From an uncultured Gammaproteobacteria bacterium (GTDB lineage: Bacteria; Patescibacteriota; Microgenomatia; CAYQLK01), in contig CAYOLO010000001.1 of NCBI GenBank assembly GCA_964404855.1, positions 158,245-222,244 of the forward strand: 64,000 nucleotides of DNA, in the 5' to 3' direction. Position numbers and translations under genes: made by a program. Numbering within the stretch: position 1 is the stretch's first letter; the number at the start of each line of letters is the position of its first letter. This document shows positions 6,601 to 32,486 of the stretch, one piece after another. A model generated the notes under the pieces. It was not told the origin of the DNA, did not search any database, and worked only from the letters and a program-made list of their open reading frames with translations.

Positions 6601-7181
6601 GATTTTGAGGTTGGGGTGATGGGTTGCTGTATTGGTTGAGGAGAACTTGGCAGATTAAGGCTGGCTTCTGGTTCGGTTTGGGAGGGAGTATTGATTTTAA
6701 TGGTTTTTGGTAACTCTATTGCAGGAGGAAGATTTTCGGCGGCTTTTTCCTGACGAATTTTTTGTATTACAGCGTCAACTTCTTCGATTGTGGCGAGGCC
6801 GCTTGTAGGTAATTTGGCTTGGTCTTTGTTAGTTTTGGAAATAATTGGTATGGCGGCCAAATTTGAGATTTCGAGTTCTTTGAGATCATTTTCAATAAGT
6901 GAGGAAAAAATTTGTCTAAGAACAAGAATGTTTTGACCAATATCGGCAATTTTGTATTGGTCGGCAATATTTTGAATTGAAATTAATGTTTGTTCGTAGT
7001 TGGCACCTGGAAAGAGGTCTAAAAATTTTTTATTGAACTCCTCTTCGGTTGGGAATCTTGGGGGAAGGTTTTTGGTAGCAGATTTTTCAAAAAAATCTAA
7101 AGTCCAGTCTGCCAACCGAAACTGTAGTAATTGATCTAAAGCATTTTGGGGTTTGGTGGTTGTTTCGGGTGTAGTTGGCAT
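3684..7181 (-). CDS. Large polytopic membrane protein with C-terminal M23 (LytM) peptidoglycan endopeptidase domain; T4SS-associated cell-wall hydrolase candidate (functional analogue of VirB1/PrgK/TcpG)
   Basis: 1165 aa. Residues ~550–720 form at least six hydrophobic Gly/Ala-rich helices. The extreme C-terminus ...VVTKGQVIGYEGYTGYILPPDIRGTHLHYEFRGLRMEPPYIP carries the M23 family HxH zinc-binding motif with preceding GYTG. An N-terminal ~540-aa helical domain is Pro-rich. Sits between VirB4 and the operon end. Confidence 0.65.
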   Translation of the reverse strand: MPTTPETTTKPQNALDQLLQFRLADWTLDFFEKSATKNLPPRFPTEEEFNKKFLDLFPGANYEQTLISIQNIADQYKIADIGQNILVLRQIFSSLIENDLKELEISNLAAIPIISKTNKDQAKLPTSGLATIEEVDAVIQKIRQEKAAENLPPAIELPKTIKINTPSQTEPEASLNLPSSPQPIQQPITPTSKSPQPTITLPVSPSSSSTIEKPYSNEAKTKKAATVKKLEDTVNLTHKEVATSIKQIILSPEISATIFKTKIDAANQERLVGKISDAVASNIVYSTHTADYQELSPVIASEIYEAVAKEPETAKQASNLVKSEEFLVAVDQSSEANFPAISQANVASQVLLINTLTDPKSAPTTHTEIIDNAVSTALKINPSTNTSQNKLVVSAAIQQVFLPNIAQRVLDTTTDDFEKNIPLQPERFLQNLNDAQEQSFNSLLKHLDGKLEDKTLLTQAAPRFVTDTISREILQPINIYAQGQQAVAPAEAEAAQNHAFASLMENPKRQKEGYEDFLTETLQPSPQRQSFLSRSTKELKGRGSVSAGEAILLKNYSDELELYEQIPQFQNPNKRSVWRMGGFSRSYYSQSSAGQTITRSTNFIPKKSYFNFSQKFSASRAKGKLKGFAKKGAGKVAAKVGLSAALGAATGGTSLVAQIALALILKYKKKIAYIAAMLAFLAYLLFLWLLTQIAAFIIGFAVGAAIGFMLGGPIGALIGGFLGGTASVWLYSHFPPYAAFVDNVLLSLPKLWGVVTAPIGWIASAWGALSATASFLGGVGSGAVGLIGGGLSSLGGLLSSGASTAVTVATSPAVLIPAATLGGVTAFSVLSYNTVSSALFTNPSLPEQIVLPGDATEGESGNAYIQIQKLVSAPNKSLGPAKTINLENSDLPQTITYSVSITAGNQPVYDIVCSDTITHTTKNGTVRSLTPPTITCPATLNPNQSTNINYSLNIPNETIFEDSSISNKFSINFKSFDPLITPSPLPSGGFSNSVSSTANDLSSVFIGTPAGDCPSGWPVAGSGSVTQGPGANISHQSLEAIDIGTFYTDSLLASFNGIVQYKYSDPNASHPITGRTGLTVILSGTCNGVAFQAIYGHLDSFGSGIEVGTVVTKGQVIGYEGYTGYILPPDIRGTHLHYEFRGLRMEPPYIPVDVRACAGSCAGVN

Positions 7182-7243: not shown

Positions 7244-9106
7244 TTAAATGATTTCTTGCGAAGCAGATGAAAGTGGCACGTTTGAGGTGTTAGAATCTTG
7301 GTTTTGGGCAGCAGCAGCATTTTGCATTTCTAAAACCTCCTTAGGATTACTGGTGACAAGTTGATGTTCTTCTGGTGAGCCAACCACAAGCATTGCCACG
7401 TGTGAACTTCCTGCAAAAAACAACCCCTCACCGACATTTGCAGCTAGAAGTAAGTGTTTTTCTCCATCTGAGAGATAAAATACCTCGGCAAGCTTGTCGA
7501 TAGCTGCTGCAGACTGTTTAAGGAGGATTTGAATACTTGAGTTGGTCACGATAGCCTTGCCATATTCTGTGCCCAAGAAGTCCTCGACATCCTGAGTAAT
7601 CGTGGTTAATCCTAGATAATATTTACGAGCACGTTTGGCGATTGAGTACATAAACGTAGCAGAATCAGGATATTGCATCATATACCAAGCCTCATCGACT
7701 ATAAGTATGCGCTTTTTGAGGTCTCTTTTAACACGAGTCCATATAAAGTCGAGAATAATATACATAGCTATTGGGCGCAGTTCGGCTTCAAGGTTTTTGA
7801 TACTAAAAACTGTAAATGTGTTGTGAATATCTAGATTGGAGTATTGGTCGAATATTCCAACTAAAGAACCTTTGACAAACTTTTCGATTCTTTCAGCAAG
7901 GGTTTTGGCTTGAGGTTCTTCCATGCCAATTAAAGCCTTATATAAATCTTCCATTAATGGTGGTTGAAGTGTTTGGGTTTGTGGATCGGCAGTAATGCCC
8001 TTATTTTTGTAAGCAAGTACTAAAGCACGGTCGAGAATTGCATCTTCTGTGGCGGAAAGTTGTCCCATAATGACTCTGAAAAGTCCGTGAAGCGAGAGGA
8101 TTTTGAGATTTAACTCGTTTTCTCCTTCTTCATAGACACCAGAAAGATCGAAAGGGTTAATTTTTGTTTCTGAGTTGAAGTCGAAGCTAATATATTCTCC
8201 ACCTATGGCGGTACAGAGATTTTTGTACTCTTCTTCTGGATCAATAATAATAACTTCGGTGCCAAACATTAGATATCTTAGGGCTTCAAGCTTGGTCATA
8301 TAGGATTTACCGCCTCCGGACTTAGCAAAAACGACGGTATTGGCATTTTCGAGTGAAAATCTGTCAAAGATGATTAGTGATCCGTTGTGTCTATTAATGC
8401 CATACATAATTCCCTCGTTGCTGGTTAAGGAGCTTGATGTGAAAGGAAAAGTTGTGGCTAAAGACGTAGTATCCATGTTTCTGGTAACGAGAAGCTTGTC
8501 GTGGCCGTATGGGAGAGTGGTTTTGAAACCGTCTTCTTGTTGAAGAGTGGCGTGTTTAGAAATAACTAGAATGGAACCAAGCAGACTTTCAACTTGTTTG
8601 GTGATATTGACTAGCTCCTCTTTTGATTCGGCAGGAATAGTGATATAGAGCCCGAACTGAAAAAACTTTTCGGCACCTTTGGCTAGATCTTGTTGAAAGT
8701 TGCGTGCGTCATCTAGGGTAACTTCAAGACTAGGATCAATAACTTTGCCGCGTTGAATATCGGTAGAAATAGTTGCCTCCATTTCTCCAATTTTGCGTTT
8801 CATGTCTTGAAGCACTGCTTGAGCGTCAACTGGATAATGGAACATTGAGATTTCGAGCGTGTGATTAAAATTAATAAGAGGTGAAAGCCAGTTGGCTCCG
8901 ACATACCTGGGGTAGCCAATTACAAAAAGTGTTTTAAAGTAAGTCTCGCCGATTTTTATAAAATCGAAATCGACCTCAATTGCTGGAGGGGCAATGATAT
9001 CTCTAACCGAAACTGTGCCTTGGGCCACTGCTTTGGCTTGAGCAGATACGAGCTGTGGAGCGTTTTGAGGGCTTTGATTAGGGTCTTTTTTGCCAAATAG
9101 TTTCAT
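7244..9106 (-). CDS. virB4: Type IV secretion ATPase VirB4/TrbE/CagE family
   Basis: 620 aa. Walker A FAKSGGGKSYMTKL, Walker B RILIVDEAWYMMQ, and an N-terminal VirB4 domain pattern (DIIAPPAIEVDFDFIKIGETYFKTLFVIGYPRYVGANWLSPL). Start overlaps the upstream gene stop (ATGA at 9103–9106), suggesting translational coupling. Confidence 0.9.
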   Translation of the reverse strand: MKLFGKKDPNQSPQNAPQLVSAQAKAVAQGTVSVRDIIAPPAIEVDFDFIKIGETYFKTLFVIGYPRYVGANWLSPLINFNHTLEISMFHYPVDAQAVLQDMKRKIGEMEATISTDIQRGKVIDPSLEVTLDDARNFQQDLAKGAEKFFQFGLYITIPAESKEELVNITKQVESLLGSILVISKHATLQQEDGFKTTLPYGHDKLLVTRNMDTTSLATTFPFTSSSLTSNEGIMYGINRHNGSLIIFDRFSLENANTVVFAKSGGGKSYMTKLEALRYLMFGTEVIIIDPEEEYKNLCTAIGGEYISFDFNSETKINPFDLSGVYEEGENELNLKILSLHGLFRVIMGQLSATEDAILDRALVLAYKNKGITADPQTQTLQPPLMEDLYKALIGMEEPQAKTLAERIEKFVKGSLVGIFDQYSNLDIHNTFTVFSIKNLEAELRPIAMYIILDFIWTRVKRDLKKRILIVDEAWYMMQYPDSATFMYSIAKRARKYYLGLTTITQDVEDFLGTEYGKAIVTNSSIQILLKQSAAAIDKLAEVFYLSDGEKHLLLAANVGEGLFFAGSSHVAMLVVGSPEEHQLVTSNPKEVLEMQNAAAAQNQDSNTSNVPLSSASQEII

Positions 9107-10206
9107 GATTGTCCTCCGTTTCCTGATGGTGATTTTAGGGCATTTAGAGCCTTTAAGATATCTGGATCAATAGTATTACTGTTGGTTAAGTCGTCACTGC
9201 TGTTCGGTTGTGGTGCCATTGTTGTTGGTTGAGGTTGGGGTGTGTTAATTACCGATGGAATAGTGGGAATTTGTGAGGCTGGTTCTGGAATAGGAGAGGT
9301 TTGGGGGGTAACCACAGATGCCGCTGTTTGATTGAGAGGATTGGCAGCTATGGGGGGTGCTTGAACCGCAGGGTTAGGGGCGTAGATGGTTTGTTGTGGT
9401 CCAGCGGGTGGAGCAGGTTGAGGCTGTGGGGTATATAAGGGTTGGGTTTGGGCAGTTTGAGGCTCGACAGGCTGTGGTTCTGGTTGAACTGGAGAGGCAA
9501 TTGAGGTTGTTGCTTGGTTTTCTTCAACAATCGGAGCTGAGACTGCTGGCGAAACGATGGGTGATGTGTATGAGCCTGCTGATTCAATTATTTTTTGCAA
9601 TCCAACCTCACTAGGGTTGTAGATGTCAAAATAAAGCTCGATTAGTTCTTGTGTGGTCAATTGTTTTGATTTGATACCAATACGGCCGAATTGTTGAACA
9701 AGATGGTCACGTTTGGGGTAGAGACTTGTTTTGACCATGTCAATAAAACCTTGAGTGTGGGTATTGTCCTTTTGAATATTGCCAAGGGCGGCACCTTTGA
9801 CACCCAACTCGAGCGGATTAAATGGAATAACCACGTAGAATTTTTTTTCTAGAACGTTGTTTTGTTGAACAACGGTTTGAATAAATTGTCGATATTGAAA
9901 AATCTGCCTTTTGATGTCCGGGTTGGCTTGATGGGTTTCTGCTTGAGTGATTAATTGCAGGTAGTTACTGAGGTCAATTTTTTTACTACGAACAACGATT
10001 TGAATAGTGAAATTTAAGGAGTTGAGAAGTCCAGCGTACGAGTAAATAATTGAGTCCTGTTCGTCGACAGAGAGAAGTTCGAAATTAATAGCGGCAGTTT
10101 GAATAATAATCGTGGCCGAATTGTCTTTGAGGATTACAACATCATCACGGATATCGCTGATTTCTAGGTGTTCTTGAGTTGATGATTTAATCGGGGCAGA
10201 TTTCAT
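9103..10206 (-). CDS. Hypothetical T4SS-associated protein: N-terminal ~200-aa domain resembling a VirB4 N-terminal domain (no ATPase motifs) fused to a Pro/Gln-rich low-complexity tail
   Basis: N-terminus ISDIRDDVVILKDNSATIIIQTAAINFELLSVDEQDSIIYSYAGLLNSL resembles VirB4/TraC N-domain patterns (dG..a.lev.g.nf.l.s.eEq...f...LnsL). C-terminal ~130 aa is PQPEPQPVEPQ...-type low complexity. No Walker motifs. Confidence 0.4.
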   Translation of the reverse strand: MKSAPIKSSTQEHLEISDIRDDVVILKDNSATIIIQTAAINFELLSVDEQDSIIYSYAGLLNSLNFTIQIVVRSKKIDLSNYLQLITQAETHQANPDIKRQIFQYRQFIQTVVQQNNVLEKKFYVVIPFNPLELGVKGAALGNIQKDNTHTQGFIDMVKTSLYPKRDHLVQQFGRIGIKSKQLTTQELIELYFDIYNPSEVGLQKIIESAGSYTSPIVSPAVSAPIVEENQATTSIASPVQPEPQPVEPQTAQTQPLYTPQPQPAPPAGPQQTIYAPNPAVQAPPIAANPLNQTAASVVTPQTSPIPEPASQIPTIPSVINTPQPQPTTMAPQPNSSDDLTNSNTIDPDILKALNALKSPSGNGGQS

Positions 10207-10207: not shown

Positions 10208-12241
10208 TTAATTTTGTAAGTTTTTAGCAGTTATTGCGAAAGGATCAAGAAGCTGACCTTTGGCTTCGAAGGCAATTGTATCAAAGTTTAAGCCGTCAAA
10301 ATCGGTTTGAATTGTGTATTTTCCGTTAGCTAAGGGAGTAACAGATATAAATTGCCCAAGACCGTTGGTTTTAAAAGCACGAACTGGCTTGCCAGAAGTA
10401 TCAAATACGGAAATTAGTGCACCTTGAACTAGTTCTCCATTACTGTTGTAAACAATGCCATTGGGTGTGTTGGGGTGTTCAGATAGGTTGATTTTTATTT
10501 CTGCTTTTGGAGCTGCTTTGGCCTGAGTGGATTGATAATTAAATGGCTGCACGACACCGCCGTGTTTTTGGTCGCGATTTTCATTTGGTTCAGCTTTGGT
10601 TGGTTGAGCTGTTTGGTGACTATCACTAGTGGTAGGTTTGTTGAGGTTAGGACTAGGTGGAGGGGCAAAGTCCTTAGAATCTTTTTCGGAAATTTTTCCA
10701 GCTTTAATTGGTTCAAAATCTTTAACTTTTTTGATTTCCTCTATGGCAATTCCACCAGCAATACTACCCATTTGGATGGGTTTTTGTGGCTGTGGTTCGG
10801 GGTTTTCGAAGCGTTTTTTGAGTTCTTTGCTGATATCAAATTGTCTTTCGCCCAAGATTGGCAACCTACCCTTGGAGAAGTCGGGTGGGCGGGTTTTGAG
10901 TTTGCGAATACGAGTATCGCCTATTCCCTGCATGAATTGGATTTGATTACCAGGGATGGCGATAACATTGCCTCCAAAATTAATATCGGAGGCAATTTGT
11001 GCAGCAATTGAAGTTTGGCTGTTTACGGTTGAAAAATTACTGGATGGTAGAGGTGAGACGACTGTTTTTTTGCCAACATTGGGAAGTAAATGTTTTTGGA
11101 ACATGTCGGGGGTTGAGGTGTTAAACCCGCCATTTTCTGCAAGACTTTTGTTTTTCTTAAAATCTTCCCATGCTGTAGAGAATTTTTCCTGCTCCTTTTG
11201 AATACTGGCTTGTTGGCGGAGAATTTCTTGTTCCTTGGCTTTTATTTCTGCCTCAATTTGTTGTTGAGAGCGTAATATTTCGTCTAGTTCAGCAAGTTTT
11301 TGTTTGGACTCTTCAGTTGGGGCTGTAGGTTGATTCTGGGGAGTTTTCAGGTTGACTGAGGCCTCTGGTGTTAGTGGTAGGACCTTAATTTCACGATTAG
11401 GGTTAAGGTTTGCGGGGGTAGAATAAGCATCTGGGCCTTTGTTAATTAATGAAACTTCTGGAGTTTGGCTTTGTGGGTTGGTTAGTTTTTGACTAAGCAG
11501 GTTGAGCTTCTTTTGTTTTTCTTCCTCGAGTTTTATTTTAGAAGTTTCTAAGGCTTTTTGTTTTTCGATTAAAGCTAATTCTTGAGCTTTGATTTCTTCC
11601 TCTTTAGCTTTAAGTTCGGCTGGTTTGGGAGCAGCCTGAGTGGTTGTTCTGATGTTTTGGATTGGTTGTTGATACGGAGAGAAAGGATTTTGATTAATGC
11701 CTTGGTTTTGGGGAGGAGGGGCGTTGGTGGCCTTGACTGTTGATTCGAGGCTAGCGATTTGAGCTAAGAATTGACTTTCTTTTTGGTCAAAAGGGTTAAC
11801 TATTGATGAATGTGACTGTCTGGCAAGCAGTGTTTGAAGTTCTGATCTGCTGATTCTAGCTGGCATTACTGAGGAAGAAACCTGCTGAATGGGGGCAGAT
11901 TTGAGGAAATTAGCTTCTAGAAAATAAGGTACGTGGTTATCCTTGATCCAAATTCTTTGGGTGGGTCTAGTGATAGAGCGGAAAAAAGCAACAATCCACT
12001 TGTCTAATGGTCTTCCCTGTAAAGGAACTGCAGCAAAAACAATTCCAAGTAAAACAAATAGTCCTCCGACAATATATGAAAATGTTTTGGGAAGAGGGGA
12101 AAAATAAAAAACGGCGCCAATTATTCCACCTATTGCGACATAGATAAACTGGCGGATTGTAAATGGTCCGAAGAGTTTGAACTCAAACGTGGTAATGTTT
12201 TGCGGTACTGCATGCTCTTCCATAGCTATTTTGCCTGCCAA
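10208..12241 (-). CDS. PrgI/VirB3-like membrane protein fused to long coiled-coil and C-terminal beta-sandwich (carboxypeptidase-regulatory/Big-like) domain
   Basis: N-terminus AVPQNITTFEFKLFGPFTIRQFIYVAIGGIIGAVFYFSPLP... matches the PrgI-family signature (vPkdL..fk.k.ffgLT.RQ + two TM helices). A coiled coil follows (AELKAKEEEIKAQELALIEKQKALETSKIKLEEEKQKK). C-terminus GIVYNSNGELVQGALISVFDTSGKPVRAFKTNGLGQFISVTPLANGKYTIQTDFDGLNFD looks like a CarboxypepD_reg-type fold. First gene of the minus-strand operon. Confidence 0.5.
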   Translation of the reverse strand: MAGKIAMEEHAVPQNITTFEFKLFGPFTIRQFIYVAIGGIIGAVFYFSPLPKTFSYIVGGLFVLLGIVFAAVPLQGRPLDKWIVAFFRSITRPTQRIWIKDNHVPYFLEANFLKSAPIQQVSSSVMPARISRSELQTLLARQSHSSIVNPFDQKESQFLAQIASLESTVKATNAPPPQNQGINQNPFSPYQQPIQNIRTTTQAAPKPAELKAKEEEIKAQELALIEKQKALETSKIKLEEEKQKKLNLLSQKLTNPQSQTPEVSLINKGPDAYSTPANLNPNREIKVLPLTPEASVNLKTPQNQPTAPTEESKQKLAELDEILRSQQQIEAEIKAKEQEILRQQASIQKEQEKFSTAWEDFKKNKSLAENGGFNTSTPDMFQKHLLPNVGKKTVVSPLPSSNFSTVNSQTSIAAQIASDINFGGNVIAIPGNQIQFMQGIGDTRIRKLKTRPPDFSKGRLPILGERQFDISKELKKRFENPEPQPQKPIQMGSIAGGIAIEEIKKVKDFEPIKAGKISEKDSKDFAPPPSPNLNKPTTSDSHQTAQPTKAEPNENRDQKHGGVVQPFNYQSTQAKAAPKAEIKINLSEHPNTPNGIVYNSNGELVQGALISVFDTSGKPVRAFKTNGLGQFISVTPLANGKYTIQTDFDGLNFDTIAFEAKGQLLDPFAITAKNLQN

Positions 12242-12471: not shown

Positions 12472-14742
12472 ATGCCAGATAACGAGAAACACATTATTAG
12501 TTTAGAAGAGCAGGCAAGGGTTGAGGATCAGCCTTTGGCGAGCACTCAGGCTGAGGCACAACTATTTAGTGCTATTGATAGGGCTATGGGGGTTGAGAGT
12601 CAGACTAGGGATGAGCAGGTAACTCAGGAAGCGGATGAAAGTCATCGAACACAAATTGAATATATACGAGAATTAAACTCAATTGAGCTTGAGTTGAGAA
12701 ATGCTGATCCTTCAGTTAGAAGTATGCTTGAGGCGAGACGGGATGAATTAAAGGCCGAGCTTGAGTCGATGGTAGCTACTGAAAAAGAAAAAGAGCGTTA
12801 TCTTGATGCGGGCTTAAGGTTGTTTACAAGGTTGCAGACGCAAAAGGATGCGGTGCTGGCTAACTTGAAGGCTTTTAGAGGTTTGACTCCAAATAGAAAC
12901 GAGCTGATGAATCCATTGAATGCGTTTGTTGATAAGGTTGAGAGCTTAAGAAAAGAAGGAGATCCAAACACACCAGAGCGTAGAGAGGGCGAACTTAAAG
13001 CGGCTGCTTTGGAATTTGAACTTAGGAAAGCCAGGGAAGAAGTTTTGGCTGCGATTGAAAACTATAACCCCGTCGAATCACTTAAGTTAAATGCTTTAAC
13101 TGAGCTTGAGTTGGCTGAAGATCAGAGAGTGGCAAGGGATAATCCACAAATAAGAGAATTGTTAAAAATTTTAAATGACCCAGAATTAAGCGGAAAGTTT
13201 GGCAAACAAGTTGAAGCCTTTAGGGATGAATATAATGCCTTGGTAAGGATTCATAATTTTGCGGTAGCTGGTAAGGGTAAGGGGGCAGTTGAAATAACGG
13301 CCGCTTTGGGCGAGCTTGATCAGGCCGCATTAGTTGAGTTGTTTGAAGCTGAAGGCTTAAGGCAGGATATTATTGATGCTTATATTGCCGATAGGAGAGT
13401 TTTTGATGAGTTGAACACAGCGGTATTGGATCAAAAAGAAGCTGAAGCTTTATTAGAAGAGAGAACAGTATTGGGCAACAATAAGCGTACTTTTAAAAGA
13501 GCTGAAGTTCCAGATCCTAGGGATCCAACTAAAATGATTGATTTAGAAACTCTTTATCGTACGACTAGTGACGAGGATCAAAAAAAGGCGTTAATAGCAG
13601 CTAATCAGCCTTTACTGACCGAGGGTTATAAACAAAAGAAGGCATGGGAAGCTAAATATGTTGATAGTGTTTTGAGAGATGAATTTTTTTCTCCTTCAGC
13701 GCTTGCGAATTTTAGGTCGAGCGAACGCGTACCAGCTTCAGTTACAGTTTCTGAGCTTCAAAAACTAATTGAAGCAAGTTATGCATATAAGTCAAGGAAG
13801 ATTGTTTTGGGGCAAGAAATGGATAATATGATTGGTTTCCTTGAGACTACAATTGCGCCCATGGTTGTTGAGCCTATTAGGGTAATTCCAACTGAACCAC
13901 TAAAAAATGGTGACACAACTGGATATATCTTTGCGGGCAAATATAAGGATAATATTTTGGTTAAAACTAGATACCCACAAGATGTGTTGGAGGCTGGAGG
14001 AAAGATAAATGGGAAAGTTTTGAATATAACAGGCCCAATCTTTGATAAGGGATTCTATAAATATGGGGATCCTGGGTTTAAGCTAATGACGGAAACCTTT
14101 GGTATGGAAAAACCGACTGATCCGGAAAAAGCTACAGATGTGACTGATTGGTTAGAAAGATTTAAGACTGTCGATGCGCTGAGTCAAATTCGTAATAATC
14201 CAGAAGTGGTGAATAAACTTAAAGATGATGTTTATAAGGATGCGGCAGCAGCTCAAGCGAACGAAATGTACGATAAGTTTGAGGCTTTTCAGAGGGAACC
14301 GAATGAAGAATCAGCAAAAGCTTTGATGGCAAGTTATTTTTCTAAAACGCCTGAAGATAGGCGTAATTTCAACATGCAGGTAATTGAGGCACTACTTAGA
14401 TATAAGATGAAAATTAATGGGATTTATGCCTTTAGTGACAATAATGAGAGACAGAATTGGGGAGCAAGAAGAATTGAAGATTATATTGGCAAAGCTAGAG
14501 AAGCTGGGTTAATTGGCACGAGAGAAGAGAGGGAATTAAAAAGAAGAGTTTTTAAGGGTAAAGAAATTAAATTGGGCCGTGTCAAAATTGCCACAATTCC
14601 AGCACTTGGAAAAAAAGCAGAGATGGTTGGTGCTTGGACTAAAGAAGTTTTTGGCCCTAAGAACTTAAAAAATACGGCTTTTAGCTGGGCTAAGACTTTG
14701 TATAAAGAGAGCGTTGACCAGATTAGGTCTGATTTGAAATAG
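12472..14742 (+). CDS. Large soluble, highly charged coiled-coil protein (hypothetical; candidate T4SS substrate/accessory)
   Basis: 756 aa with no TM segment and no nucleotide-binding motif. N-terminal two-thirds rich in heptad-like E/K/R/L repeats. Transcribed divergently from the T4SS-like operon. Confidence 0.55.
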   Translation: MPDNEKHIISLEEQARVEDQPLASTQAEAQLFSAIDRAMGVESQTRDEQVTQEADESHRTQIEYIRELNSIELELRNADPSVRSMLEARRDELKAELESMVATEKEKERYLDAGLRLFTRLQTQKDAVLANLKAFRGLTPNRNELMNPLNAFVDKVESLRKEGDPNTPERREGELKAAALEFELRKAREEVLAAIENYNPVESLKLNALTELELAEDQRVARDNPQIRELLKILNDPELSGKFGKQVEAFRDEYNALVRIHNFAVAGKGKGAVEITAALGELDQAALVELFEAEGLRQDIIDAYIADRRVFDELNTAVLDQKEAEALLEERTVLGNNKRTFKRAEVPDPRDPTKMIDLETLYRTTSDEDQKKALIAANQPLLTEGYKQKKAWEAKYVDSVLRDEFFSPSALANFRSSERVPASVTVSELQKLIEASYAYKSRKIVLGQEMDNMIGFLETTIAPMVVEPIRVIPTEPLKNGDTTGYIFAGKYKDNILVKTRYPQDVLEAGGKINGKVLNITGPIFDKGFYKYGDPGFKLMTETFGMEKPTDPEKATDVTDWLERFKTVDALSQIRNNPEVVNKLKDDVYKDAAAAQANEMYDKFEAFQREPNEESAKALMASYFSKTPEDRRNFNMQVIEALLRYKMKINGIYAFSDNNERQNWGARRIEDYIGKAREAGLIGTREERELKRRVFKGKEIKLGRVKIATIPALGKKAEMVGAWTKEVFGPKNLKNTAFSWAKTLYKESVDQIRSDLK

Positions 14743-14757: not shown

Positions 14758-16467
14758 TTACGGTCTTCTGCGACTGAATGGGTTAGCTGATCTTTGGGCT
14801 TGTGTTGAAGCTTGTTGAGGTGTGGTTGACGGACCAGCAGGTCCAGGTCTGCCTGGTGTAATTGGTGAAGATGCACCTGGGGTACTTGAAAGCCTATCAT
14901 ATCTTCTTTGTGAACTCCAAGGATTAAATGTGTTACTTAGTTTTTCGCCAGCAAAATCACTAGTTCTAGCTTTGGCTCTGGTGGCTGCACCATTAAATGG
15001 TTGTCTAGCCATACCTAATCCTGCGCCTGCAACAGCGCCAGCCGCACCACCAATTGTTCCACCAATTCCGCCACCTTTGACTTTGAATGAATCCTGAGCG
15101 ATTTTGGCTGCGGATGGTACGCCTAATAGAATGCCAATACCAATTAAAGACTTAAGAGCGTTAGCACCTTCTTCATTAGTAAACCCACCGAGAAGCGGAG
15201 CATTCCACCCCTCACCTTCAGTAATCGTAGCTTCACCAGAGGTAATCCTGTCTTTGCCCACACCCATAAAATAGGCAGCAAAGATAATCATAAGTATGGT
15301 GATTACAAAAGTGGCAAGTTGGGCGGCAATATTTCGAATCCAAGGACCAAAGCCCGGCATGCCTGGAATAACGCCGATTCCAATCATAAGGGGACCAAAA
15401 ATTGTGTAAAAGAATACTTTGACGTAGGCCATAAGTAGCATAAAAAATATGCGGAATGTGGCTACAAGCATCATAATTCCAATCACGGCAACGGCTAGAG
15501 CAGAAAGGATACTTGAGCTGAATTTTTCGATCAAGTCAGGCAAGCCAAAGTTATCGATTGCACCAGCTATAATATCGTCGCTGCTGTGGAATATGCCTGA
15601 AATATTTTCAAGGAATAATTCTTTAAGCATAAATGTGAAAACGTTGTTTTCGTAATAGATTCCATTGGAATTAGGTTGGGCTACGCTTTCGCTCGAGAGA
15701 ATTTGAATCATAACGGCGATAAAAAAGTTCATTAGATCAATCATTAGTCCGACGATTGCATAGGAGAAGGTAACGAGGATTAAACTAATTACTATTTTTG
15801 GTAATACCGCTTGGACTGAAGCAACAGAGCTTGAACTTAGTCTCTGGCGGAAAATAATCATAAAACCAATGACAATAAAAAAGATGACATAGAGAAGAAG
15901 TGTGAGGTTGCGGAAGGTGGTCCATAAGGCTTGGGTTGGTTTGAGCGCGTCGTAGCCTGTTTGAGCAGCTAAAGTTTCGCCGGTAATTTTTGATTTAAGA
16001 TCGGCAAGATATTGCACACCCGAAGCCGGTTCTTCAGTGTAAAGCATAGCGATGCTTTTCATTAAAAATGGCACTGCGGCTCCGGTTCGACAATTGGTTC
16101 CACCACCACTTATACATTCGAGTTCTGCTTCGGTTGATGGAAGGCCAGTTATTTGGCGGTTGATACCAAAAGCCAGATTGTCCATAAGGCCTAGGTTGAA
16201 TTTTTGAAGATTCACGTCGTCTTCGTCGAGAGCGTTTTTGTACTGACAAATTGATTGTTGATATGGTTGGACAGTATCGCCTATACCAGGATGGGGATTA
16301 GAAATACCAACAGGACTGCCAGCTGGAGGAGGGGGAGAGCCAGCGGCTTCTTCCTCACACCCAAACGGATCTTCGGCTTGAGCAAGAACAGGCGACGAAT
16401 TAAAGCTAAAAAAAATTGAGAAAAGGCTGAATATTATAAAAATTGGCAGAACGATCTTAAGACGCAT
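14758..16467 (-). CDS. VirB6/TrbL-like polytopic inner-membrane T4SS channel protein
   Basis: 569 aa. Signal peptide (MRLKIVLPIFIIFSLFSIFFSFNSSPVLAQA), ~130-aa Cys-containing extracytoplasmic domain, at least 6 TM helices, then a Gly/Pro-rich C-terminal tail (GGGIGGTIGGAAGAVAGAG...PGRPGPAGPSTTPQQ). This is the architecture typical of TrbL/VirB6. Confidence 0.6.
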   Translation of the reverse strand: MRLKIVLPIFIIFSLFSIFFSFNSSPVLAQAEDPFGCEEEAAGSPPPPAGSPVGISNPHPGIGDTVQPYQQSICQYKNALDEDDVNLQKFNLGLMDNLAFGINRQITGLPSTEAELECISGGGTNCRTGAAVPFLMKSIAMLYTEEPASGVQYLADLKSKITGETLAAQTGYDALKPTQALWTTFRNLTLLLYVIFFIVIGFMIIFRQRLSSSSVASVQAVLPKIVISLILVTFSYAIVGLMIDLMNFFIAVMIQILSSESVAQPNSNGIYYENNVFTFMLKELFLENISGIFHSSDDIIAGAIDNFGLPDLIEKFSSSILSALAVAVIGIMMLVATFRIFFMLLMAYVKVFFYTIFGPLMIGIGVIPGMPGFGPWIRNIAAQLATFVITILMIIFAAYFMGVGKDRITSGEATITEGEGWNAPLLGGFTNEEGANALKSLIGIGILLGVPSAAKIAQDSFKVKGGGIGGTIGGAAGAVAGAGLGMARQPFNGAATRAKARTSDFAGEKLSNTFNPWSSQRRYDRLSSTPGASSPITPGRPGPAGPSTTPQQASTQAQRSANPFSRRRP

Positions 16468-16519: not shown

Positions 16520-17737
16520 TTATTCTTTTCTGACTTCGATATCTTTTGGGGTAATAGTGCGTAATATTATTTCTTTGGCGGTTTGAACGCTACCTAGGTA
16601 GCCTGCCCAAACTTGATTGGACTGACCAAAACCTTTAAGTCTGGTCGACGCGGTGTCAGAAAATTCTCCTGTATTGTTTTTATTCCAAAAATCACCTGGG
16701 CCAAATAATCGTAAACTGCCGGATTTTTTGCGTGCTAGTGATTTCCATACCGAGTCAACATAGGGAATTCGAGAAGAGAGGAGTGAGCCGTTTTTGGTGT
16801 ACTGGACGGAGTCGGCTGCTGTTCCAGAGGCGTTGTAGAGAATAATATATTCTTCGCCTGGACCTTCTCTGCCTTCTGGTTTGGCTGGTTCGGGATTAAA
16901 ATCTATTGATTCTTTGATCGTATCTTGCTGAAGGGTAACTTGCTGAAGTATTTGAGATAATGCGGCAAGGCGGGCGACTGAAGGAACACCTAGTAATAAA
17001 TCACGGCCAGGAACACATGTTTCTGATTCATCTTCACTGTCTGATGTGGAGGAGATACAGCCTCTGGATGTCCAGTTTGTAACTAGAGGAAATTTAGCCC
17101 AATATCTTCCCCAGGTTTCTGACCAGACTTTGGCTGATACACCACCTTGAAGTCCGGGTGGAAGAGGTTTGCCCCAAGCGTCGTAAAGGTCCTTTACTGT
17201 ACGGTAGTGCTGTCCGCAGTAGTCACCATATTCGGCAGCAGCCTCTTCGAGTTTAGTGGTGCCTGATTTGGATAATTGATAGACGGTTTCAATATATGTC
17301 TGGCGAAGTTTGTCGATATTATTTTTGGGCAAGATTTTGATTAAGGGACCATTAAAGTTGTTAAGTTCGTTGTTGTTAAGTTTGGAGATGTCTGTTTTGC
17401 GGTGAGAGTCAGTTTGGAATTTGCCCTCCAGATAATTAGCCATTGATCTGACAAAGGGCAGAACGGGTTTATTAACCACTGCAGAAACTCCTGAAGCATT
17501 GACAATTGCTCTAGATGGCTGATATTCACTCTCGGTTTTGCCCTCTAGTTCATTCCATGTTGGCGGGGTGTAAGTTGGATTGGTCCCGTTTGGTGGTTCT
17601 GGTTGATCACAGATTTTAGGCAGAGTGTATTGAGCAAATGAGTACGGTGAAAAAAAAGAAACGATTAGTGTAAATATGAGAAAAAAAGAAAGTCCAAGTG
17701 CTGGTTTTTGGACTAGGGCAAGTTTTTTCATTAACAA
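16520..17737 (-). CDS. Secreted protein (signal peptide), hypothetical; possible VirB5-like minor pilin/adhesin by position
   Basis: 405 aa with cleavable signal peptide ...FSPYSFAQ and several Cys. Lies between the VirB6-like gene and the pilin array. No recognisable catalytic motif. Confidence 0.5.
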   Translation of the reverse strand: MLMKKLALVQKPALGLSFFLIFTLIVSFFSPYSFAQYTLPKICDQPEPPNGTNPTYTPPTWNELEGKTESEYQPSRAIVNASGVSAVVNKPVLPFVRSMANYLEGKFQTDSHRKTDISKLNNNELNNFNGPLIKILPKNNIDKLRQTYIETVYQLSKSGTTKLEEAAAEYGDYCGQHYRTVKDLYDAWGKPLPPGLQGGVSAKVWSETWGRYWAKFPLVTNWTSRGCISSTSDSEDESETCVPGRDLLLGVPSVARLAALSQILQQVTLQQDTIKESIDFNPEPAKPEGREGPGEEYIILYNASGTAADSVQYTKNGSLLSSRIPYVDSVWKSLARKKSGSLRLFGPGDFWNKNNTGEFSDTASTRLKGFGQSNQVWAGYLGSVQTAKEIILRTITPKDIEVRKE

Positions 17738-17745: not shown

Positions 17746-18150
17746 TTAACACTGTGTATTTTCCGGTGTGTAGTCGAGTAGATTGATTCCCGTAACGAGT
17801 TCTAGGGATTTAAAGATAGCGTAAATAAGTAACAACACAACTACTCCGATTAGGGCGGTCATTATTGCACTCCTAGCTGAGGCTGCGCCTTGCGGATTGC
17901 CGAAGGAAAATATGTATTTGTAGCCTGCGTAGATAAGCATGACAAAAAACCCAATTCCAGCTGCGGGGGCGATAATTTTTATGGCTTTGGCGATAATATC
18001 AATTAGGTCGCAAAGCTGAGAAGGTTCTTCGCTTCCTCCACCAATTGGACCTGGACCGCCTCCAGCGGCCGCAAACACTCCCTGATTAAGGGCTAAAAAT
18101 AAAATTGAATAAAATAAAGAAATTGCGAGAGATTTTTTGTTCATTGTCAC
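17746..18150 (-). CDS. VirB2/TrbC-like pilin paralog 6
   Basis: 134 aa. Signal peptide, then two hydrophobic helices separated by the motif ...SFGNPQGAASARSAIMTALIGVVVLLL shared with the five upstream paralogs. Confidence 0.6.
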   Translation of the reverse strand: MTMNKKSLAISLFYSILFLALNQGVFAAAGGGPGPIGGGSEEPSQLCDLIDIIAKAIKIIAPAAGIGFFVMLIYAGYKYIFSFGNPQGAASARSAIMTALIGVVVLLLIYAIFKSLELVTGINLLDYTPENTQC

Positions 18151-18259
18151 TAGTTAATTAAATAATACCAGTTAATCAAATTGTAAATCCAAACAATATC
18201 GACCTGGAAAGTATTTAGTACTCCAGGTCGATATTGGAAGAAACTTTTTCCTAATCTTT

Positions 18260-18634
18260 TTACAGAGTTGGAATAGTGAAGTTGTCTCCAGTAATAATGC
18301 TGACTCCAAGAATGGTTTGGACAAGCATAATTAAGGCTAAGGCCAAAACTACAACCACCAACCCAACGAGTGCGTGAATTACTTGATTTCTGGCGGCTGC
18401 AACTTTTCCTGGGTCACCACTGGAAAGAATCCATTTGATACCACCAATTAATAGCCAGATAAAAGCAATAAGGAATGCAGCAAAAATAATCATTTGAATC
18501 ACAAAGCTGAGGATTGCTCCTGGTTCAGCTACGTTGACATTGTATGGATTAAGCTGAATTTCGTCTGCAAACGCTGCTGTAGAACTAGCAATAGTCCCGA
18601 CAACTGAGGATGATACGGCAATTAACTTTTTTAT
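18260..18634 (-). CDS. VirB2/TrbC-like pilin paralog 5 (N-terminus extended beyond the annotated ATG; non-canonical start)
   Basis: Track ORF 18260–18502 starts MIQMIIFAAF. The same frame stays open upstream to a TGA at 18641–18643 and encodes a textbook signal peptide IKKLIAVSSSVVGTIASSTAAFA|DE. A strong SD AAGGGGGTGA (revcomp of 18641–18650) lies 6 nt upstream of an ATA codon at 18632–18634. No ATG/GTG/TTG is available before the signal peptide. Confidence 0.5.
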   Translation of the reverse strand: MKKLIAVSSSVVGTIASSTAAFADEIQLNPYNVNVAEPGAILSFVIQMIIFAAFLIAFIWLLIGGIKWILSSGDPGKVAAARNQVIHALVGLVVVVLALALIMLVQTILGVSIITGDNFTIPTL

Positions 18635-18660
18635 AACGACTCACCCCCTTTCAAGGTTTT

Positions 18661-19107
18661 TTAGAACGGAAGTTCTGGACTAGTAATAGAGCCTGCGTTT
18701 AGGCTAAAGATGTTTTCAACAAGAGTCAAAATAGAAAAAGCTAGGATAATTACAATAAGGCCAATTATTGCGTAGGTGATTTTTTTCTGAGCGGCAGCGG
18801 TTTTTGCTGGCTCACCATTACTGGTAATGTAACTGATACCTGCGAGTAGTAGCCAAATAAAAGCCATAACAAAACCTGCAAACATTAGGATTTTTATGGC
18901 GAATGTAATGATTTTTCCAACATCAGAAGCTTCGGTTGGAATACCGGCTGGAGGGCAGATTTCCCCTAGAGGATTTTGGTCAGTACCTTGAGATCCTGTT
19001 GAACAAGCAGCAATTACATTGGCTGCAGAAATAGCTAGCATTATTAATATTCCTGGAAAAACAAAAATTGCTTGTTTGAATGTAGATTTTATGTGAAAAA
19101 GCGACAT
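18661..19107 (-). CDS. VirB2/TrbC-like pilin paralog 4
   Basis: 148 aa. Signal peptide (ILIMLAISAANVIAACS) and conserved core FIWLLLAGISYITSNGEPAKTAAAQKKITYAIIGLIVIILAF. Confidence 0.6.
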   Translation of the reverse strand: MSLFHIKSTFKQAIFVFPGILIMLAISAANVIAACSTGSQGTDQNPLGEICPPAGIPTEASDVGKIITFAIKILMFAGFVMAFIWLLLAGISYITSNGEPAKTAAAQKKITYAIIGLIVIILAFSILTLVENIFSLNAGSITSPELPF

Positions 19108-19108
19108 T

Positions 19109-19441
19109 TTAAAGATTGGGATTATTAATAAATAGTGCCTGTACTGTATACATTATCACAAAAGTTAGAATCAAAAGGATCATACCGATGACTGCATATG
19201 TGATTGAATTTTTTGCAGCTGCAGTCTTATTTGGATCACCACCAGAGGTAATAAATTTGATACCCCCGAGGATTAAAAAAATGACGGTAAAAATTGCACC
19301 AAGGCCAAATATAATCGATAAGAAAATAGTACCAATGTCGCCAACTGATTGAAAGTTTTCTGCGGGTTGGAACTCTTCGTTAATGTTGAGCCCCAGAAGG
19401 GGTAAGGAGCTTAGTGGTAATAATATTTTTTTAGGTGACAT
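19109..19441 (-). CDS. VirB2/TrbC-like pilin paralog 3
   Basis: Core FLILGGIKFITSGGDPNKTAAAKNSITYAVIGMILLILTF. Start taken at internal Met MSPKKILLPL (19441), which overlaps the upstream stop by 11 nt instead of 38 nt. Confidence 0.55.
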   Translation of the reverse strand: MSPKKILLPLSSLPLLGLNINEEFQPAENFQSVGDIGTIFLSIIFGLGAIFTVIFLILGGIKFITSGGDPNKTAAAKNSITYAVIGMILLILTFVIMYTVQALFINNPNL

Positions 19442-19763
19442 AAACGTTAAGAATTGATTGTGAAACAAATGCGGTTAATGCCCAAGCTATGGAAATAATA
19501 ACCAGGCCGATTACAGCATTAATTATCATAGATTTACCTCCCGCAACGCTGGCTGGATTGCCTCCGCTTAAAATTATTCGAAATGCGCCGATTGCTATAA
19601 GAATTATTGATACTAAAAAGGCAAAAGGAAAAACAAAATAAACCATTGCGTTACTAATAAATCCACCAACAGAGCTGGCTGAGCCACTGTTAAATTCAGT
19701 AATAGGATTACCGACACCTGATTCTCCGAGTCGGATTGCGATGTTTTTTGTTTCGCTTAACAT
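19431..19763 (-). CDS. VirB2/TrbC-like pilin paralog 2
   Basis: Core ILIAIGAFRIILSGGNPASVAGGKSMIINAVIGLVIISIAW. The start ATG shares its A with the TAA of the upstream gene (TAATG overlap at 19763). Confidence 0.55.
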   Translation of the reverse strand: MLSETKNIAIRLGESGVGNPITEFNSGSASSVGGFISNAMVYFVFPFAFLVSIILIAIGAFRIILSGGNPASVAGGKSMIINAVIGLVIISIAWALTAFVSQSILNVYVT

Positions 19764-20362
19764 TATGGTGTGTATATGTCGCTTGTAGCTTCTATGCCTG
19801 GAAGATTAAGAATATTAGCGCCAATTATTTCAAGAATAGTTACAGCAAAAACAATAAACAACAGACCAGAGATTGCCGAAATTATCATCTCTCGACCTGC
19901 GTTAATACCGCTTGGATTGCCAGCAGAAGTAACAATTTTAACTGCACCGAAGCCGGCGAGTATAAAAGCCACAACCGCTGCAATTGATATTGAGACGGTT
20001 AGGATTGTTGTAACAGTACTACCACCACTATCGCCTGTATCAAATTCTAGAACTCCTCCAATTGAACAGGTTGGGCTACATGGAATAGATGAGTCTCCAC
20101 CAGTGCCCCCACTACTATTTTCGCCAGATCCTACGCCTGCTCCGCCAGCTAATGCTGTTTCACATGAAGATTGGGAGTTGTAGTGTGGAAGGTCGCCTCC
20201 AAAAGTCGCAGAAATACAAGAAATTGTTCCACCAACGTTTCGAATAAACCAGTAGGTAGCAGCGTTGGTGGAATTTGTTGGCAGGAATGAGATAAGTACG
20301 AAATTAAATACTAAAAATAGTGATAATAAAAATGTTTTTAGGGCGAGATTGATTTTGGGCAT
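19763..20362 (-). CDS. VirB2/TrbC-like pilin paralog 1 with extended Gly/Ser/Cys-rich N-terminal extracellular region
   Basis: 199 aa. Signal peptide (FLLSLFLVFNFVLISFLPTNSTNA), four Cys, then core ILAGFGAVKIVTSAGNPSGINAGREMIISAISGLLFIVFAV. Confidence 0.55.
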   Translation of the reverse strand: MPKINLALKTFLLSLFLVFNFVLISFLPTNSTNAATYWFIRNVGGTISCISATFGGDLPHYNSQSSCETALAGGAGVGSGENSSGGTGGDSSIPCSPTCSIGGVLEFDTGDSGGSTVTTILTVSISIAAVVAFILAGFGAVKIVTSAGNPSGINAGREMIISAISGLLFIVFAVTILEIIGANILNLPGIEATSDIYTP

Positions 20363-20380
20363 AGAAGGTATAATCTAACA

Positions 20381-23030: not shown

Positions 23031-23483
23031 GGGGATGTATTGCCTCGACGAAATAGCTCGTTAAAAACTGCAAGCCGAGTGATTCTAAATAACTCGCAAA
23101 ATATTTTTAGAAAAAATAACTGTCAGCAAAATTTCTGACAAAGTAAACGGTTCTCTTGCAGGATTGTTTGCTCCTCGTCCGTCTGCTTACGCTTTTGCCT
23201 AAGTTAGGCCGATAAGGACTTTAAATGGTTTTTCTCCAACGGAACTATTTAGGGTACAACTTAGTTGGAGTCAAAGCGCTCATTTGCTAATTATTGGGTA
23301 TGCGGAAAGATATTATTAATATCTCTTAATAAAGATATTTATAATTTAAATTAGATAGTTTTGACCTCTAACTTGTTAGTGAGACTAAGGGCTCAGAATG
23401 ATTTTTATAAACACTAACTACGCTTGTAGAAGTTTTTGTCGGAATATTATCGGACGCGGGTTCATAGCCCGCCATCTCCACCA
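23031..23483 (+). ncRNA. ssrA: tmRNA (SsrA), standard one-piece form
   Basis: 5' end GGGGATGTATTGCCTCGACG is close to the canonical GGGGCUGAUUCUGGAUUCGACG. 3' end GGACGCGGGTTCATAGCCCGCCATCTCCACCA gives a T-arm and an acceptor strand pairing with the 5' GGGGATG, with a G3:U70 pair and encoded CCA. An internal open frame ends ...NGSLAGLFAPRPSAYAFA-TAA (stop at 23200–23202), consistent with a tag peptide of the ...AYAxA class. smpB is encoded 2.7 kb downstream. Confidence 0.85.
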
Positions 23484-23504
23484 AAATATTTTAGATATTT
23501 ATCT

Positions 23505-23537
23505 AAACAAAAGGCTGCTCGAAATGAGCGGCTTTTT
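23505..23537 (+). terminator. Rho-independent terminator downstream of ssrA
   Basis: GGCTGCTC-GAAAT-GAGCGGC hairpin (7 bp, one G·U) followed by TTTTTTT. Confidence 0.55.
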
Positions 23538-23550
23538 TTGTGTGAACTTT

Positions 23551-24228
23551 ATGTTTTTGTCCTTAACTGATTTTTTATTTCCCAAAAAATGTCTTGGCTG
23601 TTCTCGAAACGGCAGTTATTTTTGCCAAAGGTGCATTGGTAAACAGGAACAATATGGTGACCAGAAGTGTATAAAATGCCAGCGGTCAAGCTTGGACGGT
23701 TTAACTCATCCAAAGTGTAAATCGGTCTACTTACCTGAAGGAGTTTTTGTTATGTATCGGTATAAAAATATCCTGAAAAAGTTAGTTAGAGATATTAAAT
23801 TTCGCAGATTAAAATCTTTGGATAATGAGTTAACTCAACTTTACGCTAATTTGGACGAAAGACTTGTTGACTATTGGTTAAAAAATCAGTTTGTTGTTAC
23901 AAGTGTGCCGATTTCTAGGAGTAAATTAAATAAAAGAGGATTTAATCAGGCGGAATTACTAGCTAAAAAGTTTGCAAGTATAAATGATTTGGAATATCAG
24001 GATTTTTTAAGTCGAAAACGAGATACAAAAGCACAATTTGGATTAAACAGAAAAGAAAGGTTTCAAAATATTGCTAATTCATTTACTTTGAAAAAAAAGT
24101 TTAAGAAAGACACTAATTTGTTACTAATTGATGATGTTATAACGACAGGTGTGACGGCAATTGAGTGCGTTAAGGTCTTAAAAAGAAGCAGGGCGGGCAA
24201 GGTTTGGGTTTTGGTCTTAGCTGGATAA
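23551..24228 (+). CDS. comFC: ComFC-like phosphoribosyltransferase-fold protein (competence protein ComF family)
   Basis: N-terminal double zinc-ribbon (LFPKKCLGCSRNGSYFCQRCIG...KCIKCQRSS) and C-terminal PRTase motif LLLIDDVITTGVTAIECVKVLK. The track ORF starts at 23398 inside the tmRNA. Start reassigned to Met 23551 (or 23524, which lies in the terminator loop). Confidence 0.7.
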   Translation: MFLSLTDFLFPKKCLGCSRNGSYFCQRCIGKQEQYGDQKCIKCQRSSLDGLTHPKCKSVYLPEGVFVMYRYKNILKKLVRDIKFRRLKSLDNELTQLYANLDERLVDYWLKNQFVVTSVPISRSKLNKRGFNQAELLAKKFASINDLEYQDFLSRKRDTKAQFGLNRKERFQNIANSFTLKKKFKKDTNLLLIDDVITTGVTAIECVKVLKRSRAGKVWVLVLAG

Positions 24229-31535: not shown

Positions 31536-31567
31536 ATTGTTTTGAAATTAGTTTTTGGGCAATCAAA

Positions 31568-32484: not shown

Positions 32485-32486
32485 TT

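Follow-up and report, generated by a model that had tools for sequence, protein, structure and literature searches.

A conserved array of six putative VirB2-superfamily pilin genes beside a predicted type IV secretion locus in a Microgenomatia bacterium

Tandem arrays of pilin genes belonging to type IV secretion systems (T4SSs) were described in the Patescibacteria between 2023 and 2025 (PMC10633639, PMC12102498, PMC12857230). In Southlakia epibionticum ML1, a six-gene array of predicted pilins is essential and lies in a Gram-positive-like T4SS cluster without a recognisable relaxase or coupling protein (Wang et al. 2023, PMC10633639). A survey by Quinonero-Coronel et al. (2025, PMC12102498) collected 441 arrays of 2-11 pilin genes from 383 assemblies; these were defined by the families PF18895 and PF04956, had a mean identity of 25%, occurred especially in Microgenomatia and Saccharimonadia, and were often near dnaA/dnaN together with TrsD, PrgI and a highly divergent VirB6. 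Here we analyzed a 64-kb stretch of DNA (the window; positions 158,245 to 222,244 of contig CAYOLO010000001.1) in which six consecutive small genes occupy positions 20362..17746 of the minus strand. The original prediction had read them, from the sequence alone, as divergent VirB2/TrbC-like pilin paralogs. We propose, with a probability of roughly 0.6, that the six proteins are subunits of the VirB2 superfamily (PF18895, Patescibacterial branch) that would be assembled by a T4SS into a pilus-like tube or conduit.

An open reading frame (ORF) list, together with reading of the sequence, placed all six of the small genes proposed for positions 17746-20362. They are named G6 to G1 in the order of transcription, as follows:

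G6, 20362-19763, minus strand, 199 aa, first gene of the array
G5, 19763-19431, minus strand, 110 aa
G4, 19441-19109, minus strand, 110 aa counted from the ATG at 19441
G3, 19107-18661, minus strand, 148 aa
G2, about 18634-18260, minus strand, 124 aa if begun at the ATA at 18634
G1, 18144-17746, minus strand, 132 aa from the ATG, or 134 aa from a GTG at 18150

Pairwise identity among the six proteins is 25-43%, and the core that can be aligned in all of them runs from helix 1 through a short polar loop to helix 2. The loops read SGGDPNKTAAAK in G4, SNGEPAKTAAAQ in G3, SSGDPGKVAAAR in G2, SFGNPQGAASAR in G1, SGGNPASVAGGK in G5 and SAGNPSGINAGR in G6. The strict motif first put forward for this loop, G-[DN]-P-x-K-x-AAA-[KR], holds for G4 and G2 but not for the other four genes; a looser motif, S-x-G-[DNE]-P-x3-[AN]-[AG]-[AGS]-[KRQ], fits every one of the six. 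A family hidden Markov model (HMM) was built from 62 members with G6 left out. When all stop-to-stop segments in the six frames of the whole window were searched with this model, exactly six modules were recovered (E 5e-33 to 2.5e-16), and the next best segment had an E of 0.11. G5 matched at E 8.4e-30, and G6 was found at 55 bits (E 2.5e-16) even though it was outside the model. The similarity among the six proteins is far beyond chance.

The genes are closely packed over most of the array. At the G6/G5 junction the sequence TAATG (19765-19761) makes the ATG of G5 and the stop codon of G6 share one base, G5 and G4 overlap by 11 nt (19441-19431), and a gap of 1 nt separates G4 from G3. The TAATG and the 11-nt overlap had been correctly read as translational couplings in the original prediction, and tight coupling extends to the G4/G3 junction, but not to G2 and G1, which are 115 nt apart with a strong conserved hairpin between them.

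The family assignments point to T4SS pilins. Using the gathering cutoff of 26.6 bits, PF18895 (T4SS_pilin) was matched by G4 (39.9 bits), G2 (34.8 bits), G1 (34.5 bits) and G3 (28.6 bits); G5 fell 0.5 bit short at 26.1 bits and G6 scored 16.1 bits. All 62 aligned relatives match the same family. NF045849, which describes the Mbov_0395 family of pilin-like conjugal transfer proteins from integrative and conjugative elements (ICEs) of Mycoplasma, was matched by all six proteins at E<0.01 over nearly the full 80-position model, with G4 passing the curated cutoff of 40 bits (48.4 bits) and the remainder scoring 28.6 (G3), 26.4 (G1), 20.5 (G2), 18.5 (G5) and 15.5 bits (G6). TrbC/VirB2 (PF04956, gathering cutoff 27.9 bits) was matched at E<0.01 by 14 of the 62 relatives, and four of these (P0048, P0052, P0066 and P0094) exceeded the cutoff at 28.8-30.6 bits. 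Because of these matches, we consider PF18895 and TrbC/VirB2 to be families that overlap in sequence space. The proposed identity as VirB2/TrbC-like T4SS pilin paralogs is therefore upheld at the level of the superfamily, on which PF18895, NF045849, the relatives and the T4SS neighbours agree, but does not extend to strict TrbC membership. A relationship to Flp/Tad pilins was not indicated, as no Flp family was matched in Pfam at E up to 0.1, and, unlike these pilins, the six proteins contain two helices and lack a G-x4-EY motif.

When 1.84 billion representative proteins were scanned in full, 70,038 clusters were returned at E up to 0.001. The top matches were single polypeptides with 2-17 pilin modules, for example one of 552 aa with 6 modules and one of 1775 aa with 17. 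Multi-module relatives include P0108 (6 modules), P0109 (17 modules), P0113 and P0124, as well as L018:8001-8711. The two-module fusion on contig L018 was confirmed under the standard code, the only case at the DNA level, and it belongs to a four-gene array adjoining VirB6, PrgI, TraC-like and VirB4 genes. The larger fusions could be either real poly-pilins or read-through products of an alternative code.

Hydropathy shows a pair of hydrophobic helices with a short polar loop between them, in line with the T4SS_pilin architecture, and the AlphaFold2 (AF2) models agree with this arrangement. For G2, a helical hairpin with helices at 38-70 and 75-109 was predicted, with a block predicted local distance difference test (pLDDT) score of 82-89; in G6 the hairpin is C-terminal, with helices at 114-145 and 150-184 and a pLDDT of 84-90. 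The net charge is acidic in the N-terminal segments of the mature proteins, and basic or neutral in the loops. VirB2 and TraA have an N-out, loop-in, C-out membrane topology, and the hydropathy and charge of the six proteins would fit the same orientation. A signal peptide had been ascribed to every gene. Support for this was obtained for G6, G3, G2 and G1, which have signal-peptide-like N-termini with AxA-type sites, but the signal in G4 is weak and G5 has none in 7 lineages.

In the mechanism that we favor, each protein would enter the cytoplasmic membrane as an alpha-helical hairpin, with the acidic N-terminal segment and the C-tail outside and the short basic loop (SGGDPxKxAAAK) in the cytoplasm, and signal peptidase would cleave the leader of G6, G3, G2 and G1. 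Subunits would then be extracted by a VirB4-like ATPase acting with TrsD-like and PrgI/VirB3-like proteins and a VirB6-like platform, and built into a pilus-like tube or a short trans-envelope conduit directed towards the host bacterium. The paralogs would serve as fixed, specialised subunits and not as interchangeable variants. The sequence features on which this scheme draws are observed, and we infer extraction, polymerisation and the roles of the subunits from the biology of VirB2 and TraA.

Several observations weigh against assembly into a pilus-like structure. Non-AUG starts usually lower translation, and G2, as described below, appears to have such a start, so it could be a rare rather than the main subunit. 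G5 is without a signal peptide in 7/7 lineages, and relatives fused as 2-17 modules are hard to square with polymerisation of one subunit at a time unless they are processed. None of the six proteins reaches the TrbC/VirB2 cutoff of PF04956, the best being G1 with 13.4 bits (E 0.093). The match of the family profile to Agrobacterium tumefaciens VirB2 (PDB 8cue sequence) in hhalign is weak (3.5% probability, E 0.012), with helix 1 and the loop aligned in the correct register, and no PDB sequence was matched, even at E up to 10, by a profile made from the six-paralog alignment. Furthermore, the closest curated family, NF045849, comes from ICEs of the wall-less Mycoplasma, for which the ICE review describes no pilus, and no Patescibacterial T4SS pilin is known to be processed, to polymerise or to form a filament.

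Alternatively, the six proteins may be membrane-resident parts of a translocation channel (VirB2/VirB3-, PrgF- or Mycoplasma CDS15-like), forming hairpins around the VirB6-like protein with no extended pilus. We regard this as the leading rival reading, though less likely than a pilus-like structure. It would agree with the best curated match being to the Mycoplasma ICE family, whose member Mbov_0395 would correspond to CDS13/CDS15 (called VirB3-like in the review) as judged from the order of locus tags, as well as with the missing signal peptide of G5 and with the natural 2-17-module fusions, which behave like polytopic membrane proteins. Six fixed and strongly conserved paralogs would also fit a defined stoichiometric complex. 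A further point in its favor is a motif-level match to PrgF of pCF10 (hhalign E 0.0058, probability 6%), in which GVKEIRSG..DDP is placed over GGxKxITSGGxP; however, this link is statistically weak, PrgF compared with NF045849 gives an E of 0.59, and no match was found when PrgG was compared with the family profile. The overlap of the relatives with the TrbC/VirB2 pilin family above its cutoff also speaks against a channel without a pilus, and the variable secreted head of G6 and the extracellular cysteine pairs of G3 and G1 suggest exposure outside the cell. VirB2 itself combines the roles of channel component and pilin, so that the two readings are not exclusive.

We compared the array with 7 further long loci from 6 related lineages (L004, L007, L010/L011, L013, L016 and L017), which were located with the VirB6-like protein as query. 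Orthologs of all six genes were found 1:1, in identical order and with identical flanks, in the six related lineages. Amino acid identity to the window protein is highest for G2 (86-98%), followed by G5 (74-90%) and G4 (68-88%), and is 56-93% for G3, 65-90% for G1 and 53-75% for G6. The ratio of nonsynonymous to synonymous substitution rates (dN/dS) is 0.04-0.19 for all six genes, a range equal to that of the neighbouring genes, with dS saturated for distant pairs. Positive selection was not supported, since no omega near or above 1 was obtained for the mature part of any gene; the highest value, 0.95, came from the 35-codon signal-peptide segment of G6 in one comparison only. DNA repeats exceeding 23 nt are absent from the array, as are inversion sites and silent cassettes. 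Each of the paralogs is old and has been maintained under purifying selection in every computable comparison.

The 1:1 orthology, the purifying selection and the lack of cassettes therefore argue for fixed, specialised subunits rather than antigenic variants. The original prediction had left the choice between antigenic or host-specificity variation and a division into major and minor pilins of one filament. The latter, taken as distinct fixed subunits, fits the data better, and the former is disfavored. A repertoire for such variation has been proposed for the VirB2 paralogs of Bartonella and Anaplasma and is suggested in the published survey of arrays (PMC12102498). It could accommodate the low identity among the paralogs and the N-terminal head of G6, which is variable and modular between lineages. 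We nevertheless find it very unlikely here, given that each paralog keeps its own ortholog and its place in the order, that dN/dS does not exceed that of housekeeping neighbours, and that the DNA offers no repeats or cassettes for switching. In addition, overlapping or coupled starts imply joint and not alternative expression, and the serine recombinase of the window lies 10 kb away in a separate island.

The start of G2 is non-canonical, and the region around it is exceptionally conserved. The relevant feature is:

18641..18651, minus strand, extended Shine-Dalgarno (SD) sequence AAAGGGGGTGA before G2, containing an in-frame TGA that closes the upstream frame

No ATG, GTG or TTG is present from this TGA (18643-18641) to the G2 signal peptide. 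The likely start codon is the ATA at 18634-18632, nine nt after the GGGGG of the SD, which would be followed by the signal peptide (M)KKLIAVSSSVVGTIASSTAAFA, cut before DE, and then by the pilin module. The codon is ATA in six lineages and ATT in L013, and in these 7 lineages the ORF remains open and resembles coding sequence. The 36-40 nt around the SD and the start are identical or nearly so in 7 further assemblies (6 lineages), compared with 72-94% identity for the flanking sequence in those lineages; the initiation region was observed in the window and in L001, L004, L007, L010, L013, L014, L016 and L017. A clear SD was seen for only 2 of the 12 locus genes inspected, G2 and VirB4. These features suggest a conserved ATA/ATT, preceded by a very strong SD, as the initiation codon of G2. 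Gene callers cut G2 to 77-80 aa or miss it altogether.

Three other explanations for the G2 region were rejected. A pseudogene or a homopolymer sequencing error is contradicted by the fact that the A6 run and the open frame recur in 7 further assemblies, which represent six lineages. Initiation at a GTG at 18644 combined with a frameshift would leave no spacing, as this GTG abuts the GGGGG of the SD, and in L013 the frame runs into a TAA immediately. Finally, an internal start at the GTG at 18502 would leave unexplained the 44 codons upstream of it, which are open, signal-peptide-like and evolving in a coding-type manner in all lineages.

Synonymous change in G2 is also low. In comparisons with L004 and L007, its dS is 0.16-0.26, versus about 0.7-1.9 for its neighbours, a value 4-8 times lower, and its nucleotide conservation is raised at deeper divergence too. 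This may possibly reflect selection on codons or mRNA, or alternatively repeated recombination confined to G2. Pairing between the 3′ end of G3 and the G2 SD would give a weak hairpin (-7.4 kcal/mol) with no real covariation, and we mention it as an idea only.

Two elements were recognized in the spacer between G2 and G1:

18194..18236, minus strand, hairpin with a perfect 15-bp stem and a 13-nt loop, directly 3′ of G2 and followed by T-rich TTGTTTGGATTT
18162..18170, minus strand, TGnTAT[T/C]AT box (TGGTATTAT), made up of near-invariant columns in the six-lineage spacer alignment

The hairpin is kept in six lineages with 14 consensus pairs, 7 of which show compensatory double changes, and has a folding energy of -20.7 kcal/mol. 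Judged by its sequence, it looks like an intrinsic terminator or a stabiliser of the mRNA 3′ end. The box is located about 25 nt beyond the hairpin and ends 17 nt before the ATG of G1; we tentatively note its resemblance to an extended -10 promoter. A generic scan for promoters and terminators (sigma-70, simple terminator) gave nothing above shuffled expectation and reported neither the hairpin nor the box. Because a covarying terminator-like hairpin follows G2 and the box precedes G1, the genes probably form two transcription units, one consisting of G6-G5-G4-G3-G2 and the other of G1 with the genes for a 403-aa secreted protein and the VirB6-like protein. Co-transcription of all six genes with the T4SS genes, as had been supposed, is made doubtful by this hairpin.

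G6 is built differently from the other subunits. Its signal peptide is followed by a cysteine-stabilised N-terminal head, spanning about residues 36-112, and a Gly/Ser linker then leads to the pilin hairpin. In the AF2 model the head includes a small beta-hairpin and a helix at 37-72 with moderate confidence, and the linker is disordered. The head varies across lineages, some orthologs having an extra insertion of about 85 aa, whereas the pilin module is nearly invariant and four cysteines are invariant or nearly so. dN is 0.12-0.54 in the head versus 0.04-0.13 in the module; the head evolves faster in 3 of 4 comparisons and at about the same rate in L016. Cysteines are found in two further subunits. 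In G3, the signal peptide is followed by an extracellular segment with the pair C35/C51 and then by the pilin module; both cysteines are present in 6 of 7 lineages and were jointly lost in L017. G1 consists of a signal peptide and a pilin module, with one cysteine just before helix 1 and another at the C-terminus, a pair that 6 of 7 lineages retain and that has a different location in L017. The cysteines of G3 and G1 probably form disulfides on the outer face.

Within the proposed pilus or conduit, G2 would be the invariant core subunit, its dosage set by the strong SD, the AUA/AUU start and the 3′ hairpin. G6 would contribute an exposed, variable, disulfide-stabilised head and is a candidate tip or contact subunit, and G1 would probably have its own promoter and be expressed together with the VirB6-like gene. 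A bolder version of this scheme envisages a heteropolymeric monoderm pilus or conduit with hard-wired stoichiometry, in which G2 is dosed by its AUA/AUU start and hairpin, G6 makes contact with the host, and the ancestry is PrgF/Mycoplasma CDS15-like and not borrowed from diderms. We consider this combination of claims rather unlikely to hold as a whole. If the PrgF/CDS15-like ancestry were true, monoderm T4SSs would have had a VirB2 homolog all along.

The genes around the array are listed below:

16520..17731, minus strand, 403-aa secreted protein, directly 3′ of G1 and syntenic in all relatives
14758..16467, minus strand, 569-aa polytopic membrane protein, putative divergent VirB6/TrbL-like channel subunit
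12472..14742, plus strand, 756-aa protein of no known family, on the opposite strand within the T4SS locus
10208..12241, minus strand, 677-aa protein with an N-terminal PrgI (VirB3-like) domain (PF12666, 39.4 bits) and a CarboxypepD_reg-like domain
9103..10206, minus strand, 367-aa TrsD/TraC-like protein, with NCBIfam TrsD and VirB4 N-terminal matches
7244..9106, minus strand, 620-aa VirB4-like ATPase (PF19044 P-loop_TraG, 103.8 bits; AAA_10, 43.6 bits)
3684..7181, minus strand, 1165-aa protein with a C-terminal M23 peptidase domain (PF01551, 34.2 bits)

The VirB4-like, TrsD-like, PrgI, VirB6-like and M23 genes are all within 14 kb of the array, and no relaxase or coupling protein was found among the window ORFs scanned. 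The 403-aa protein keeps its position with 74-92% identity to its orthologs and has no match in Pfam, NCBIfam or PHROG. The 569-aa protein has no direct Pfam match; in BLASTP it aligns at E 5e-6 over 212 aa with a PF19590 TrbL_3 protein at the equivalent position in L018. No family in Pfam, NCBIfam or PHROG was matched by the 756-aa protein, which is syntenic in L004, L007, L010 and L013. Orthologs of the 367-aa TrsD-like protein carry PF26593 (TraC-like). VirB4 function is split, with the TrsD/TraC-like gene (VirB4 N-terminal-like) just upstream of the ATPase gene and overlapping it by 4 nt, a pattern reported for Patescibacteria. By analogy, the 1165-aa M23 protein is a candidate cell-wall hydrolase and functional analogue of VirB1/PrgK. 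Taken on its gene content, we read the locus as a monoderm-type, MPF-FATA-like, chromosomal T4SS. The same arrangement is seen in L018 and in Microgenomatia loci described in the literature.

It is highly improbable that the six are small membrane proteins of some unrelated kind (holins, bacteriocin or immunity proteins, or generic two-transmembrane proteins) that look pilin-like by hydrophobic composition alone: two-helix hydrophobic hairpins are common, and weak spurious Pfam matches to other membrane families did occur, but the matches obtained are family-specific and include the conserved loop motif, the family HMM has no other match across the 64 kb despite the other membrane proteins encoded there, in independent lineages the genes keep their place next to those for VirB4, VirB6 and PrgI, and the holin-type assignment that the original prediction had named as the outcome to watch for did not appear, with no PHROG match at E up to 0.01 and no holin match in Pfam.

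The window also contains dnaN (1181-2308), dnaG, rpoD, smpB and the gene for transfer-messenger RNA (tmRNA), and therefore represents part of a chromosome close to the origin. RpoD shares 98% identity with a named protein of Candidatus Curtissbacteria, all named matches are from Curtissbacteria, and on this evidence we assign the chromosome to Candidatus Curtissbacteria of the Microgenomates group (Microgenomatia) of the Patescibacteria. The title "uncultured Gammaproteobacteria bacterium" carried by the near-identical T4SS loci L014-L017 was rejected as a mislabel, since RpoD points to Curtissbacteria.

Upstream of the array, G6 and a SpoIID-like gene (20381-22117) start divergently with only 18 nt between them (20363-20380), so that their promoters must lie within each other's coding regions. 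Synteny of the SpoIID-like gene extends to all relatives, and its product may act with the T4SS in remodelling the cell wall. Elsewhere in the window, positions 29789-38050 form a probable integrated island, in which a serine recombinase gene (30000-31535) overlaps a tRNA match (29949-30035) and is followed by a low-GC stretch (29-35% GC at 32-38 kb) with a D12 adenine methyltransferase and an AAA_13 ATPase; this may be a mobile defence island. If the longest ORF is taken for a ComF-like phosphoribosyltransferase gene (23398-24228), its 5′ part is overlapped by the tmRNA gene (23031-23483; 105 bits in Rfam). The true start of this protein is probably further downstream, as orthologs have 225-234 aa versus 276 aa here.

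T4SS pilin arrays are essential for epibiotic growth of the one genetically tractable Patescibacterium, and may provide the physical connection by which these ultra-small bacteria feed on their hosts. The fixed paralogs, the expression signature of G2 and the head of G6 suggest first targets for structural and genetic work. The loss or shortening of G2, the most conserved pilin of the array, by standard gene callers is in addition a warning for annotation.

Among the described systems, the diderm TrbC/VirB2 pilins (PF04956; A. tumefaciens VirB2, PDB 8cue/8exh; F-pilin TraA) resemble the six proteins in being small, in having a leader and two helices with a basic loop, and in being encoded beside VirB3, VirB4 and VirB6 homologs; some relatives of the six also pass the TrbC cutoff. 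In contrast, the organism described here is a monoderm and lacks VirB7, VirB9 and VirB10, the six proteins score at most 13.4 bits on TrbC, and there are six paralogs in place of one major pilin plus VirB5. Furthermore, there is no sign of cyclisation, G1 having an N-proximal and a C-terminal cysteine instead, and a pilus is here a prediction. The Mbov_0395/MMCAP2_0565 family of Mycoplasma ICEs (NF045849) is likewise MPF-FATA-type, its whole model is matched by all six proteins, with G4 above the cutoff, and its gene adjoins those for a polytopic VirB6-like protein and VirB4, as inferred from locus tags Mbov_0395 to Mbov_0397. However, five of the six score below the equivalog cutoff, and the Mycoplasma ICEs are mobile and conjugative, whereas the present locus is chromosomal, and no relaxase was noted in the window.

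Bartonella, Anaplasma and Rickettsiales T4SSs share with this locus the presence of tandem, divergent virB2 copies beside a T4SS for host interaction, as cited in the array survey (PMC12102498). Their genes encode canonical diderm VirB2 that is thought to vary for immune evasion, in contrast to the stable orthologs under purifying selection found here. The 1:1 orthology and purifying selection, the non-AUG start and hairpin of G2, the G6 head and the cysteine pairs were not found in the passages searched of PMC10633639 and PMC12102498. The published Patescibacterial arrays show no difference in kind from the one described here. They have the same PF18895 family, the same tandem arrangement and similarly low identity (about 25% on average there, 25-43% here), the same MPF-FATA-like T4SS with TrsD, VirB4, PrgI and VirB6 near dnaN/oriC, and likewise no relaxase or coupling protein, here among the window ORFs scanned. 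The array is a further example of the published Patescibacterial pattern, with unreported details rather than a new category.

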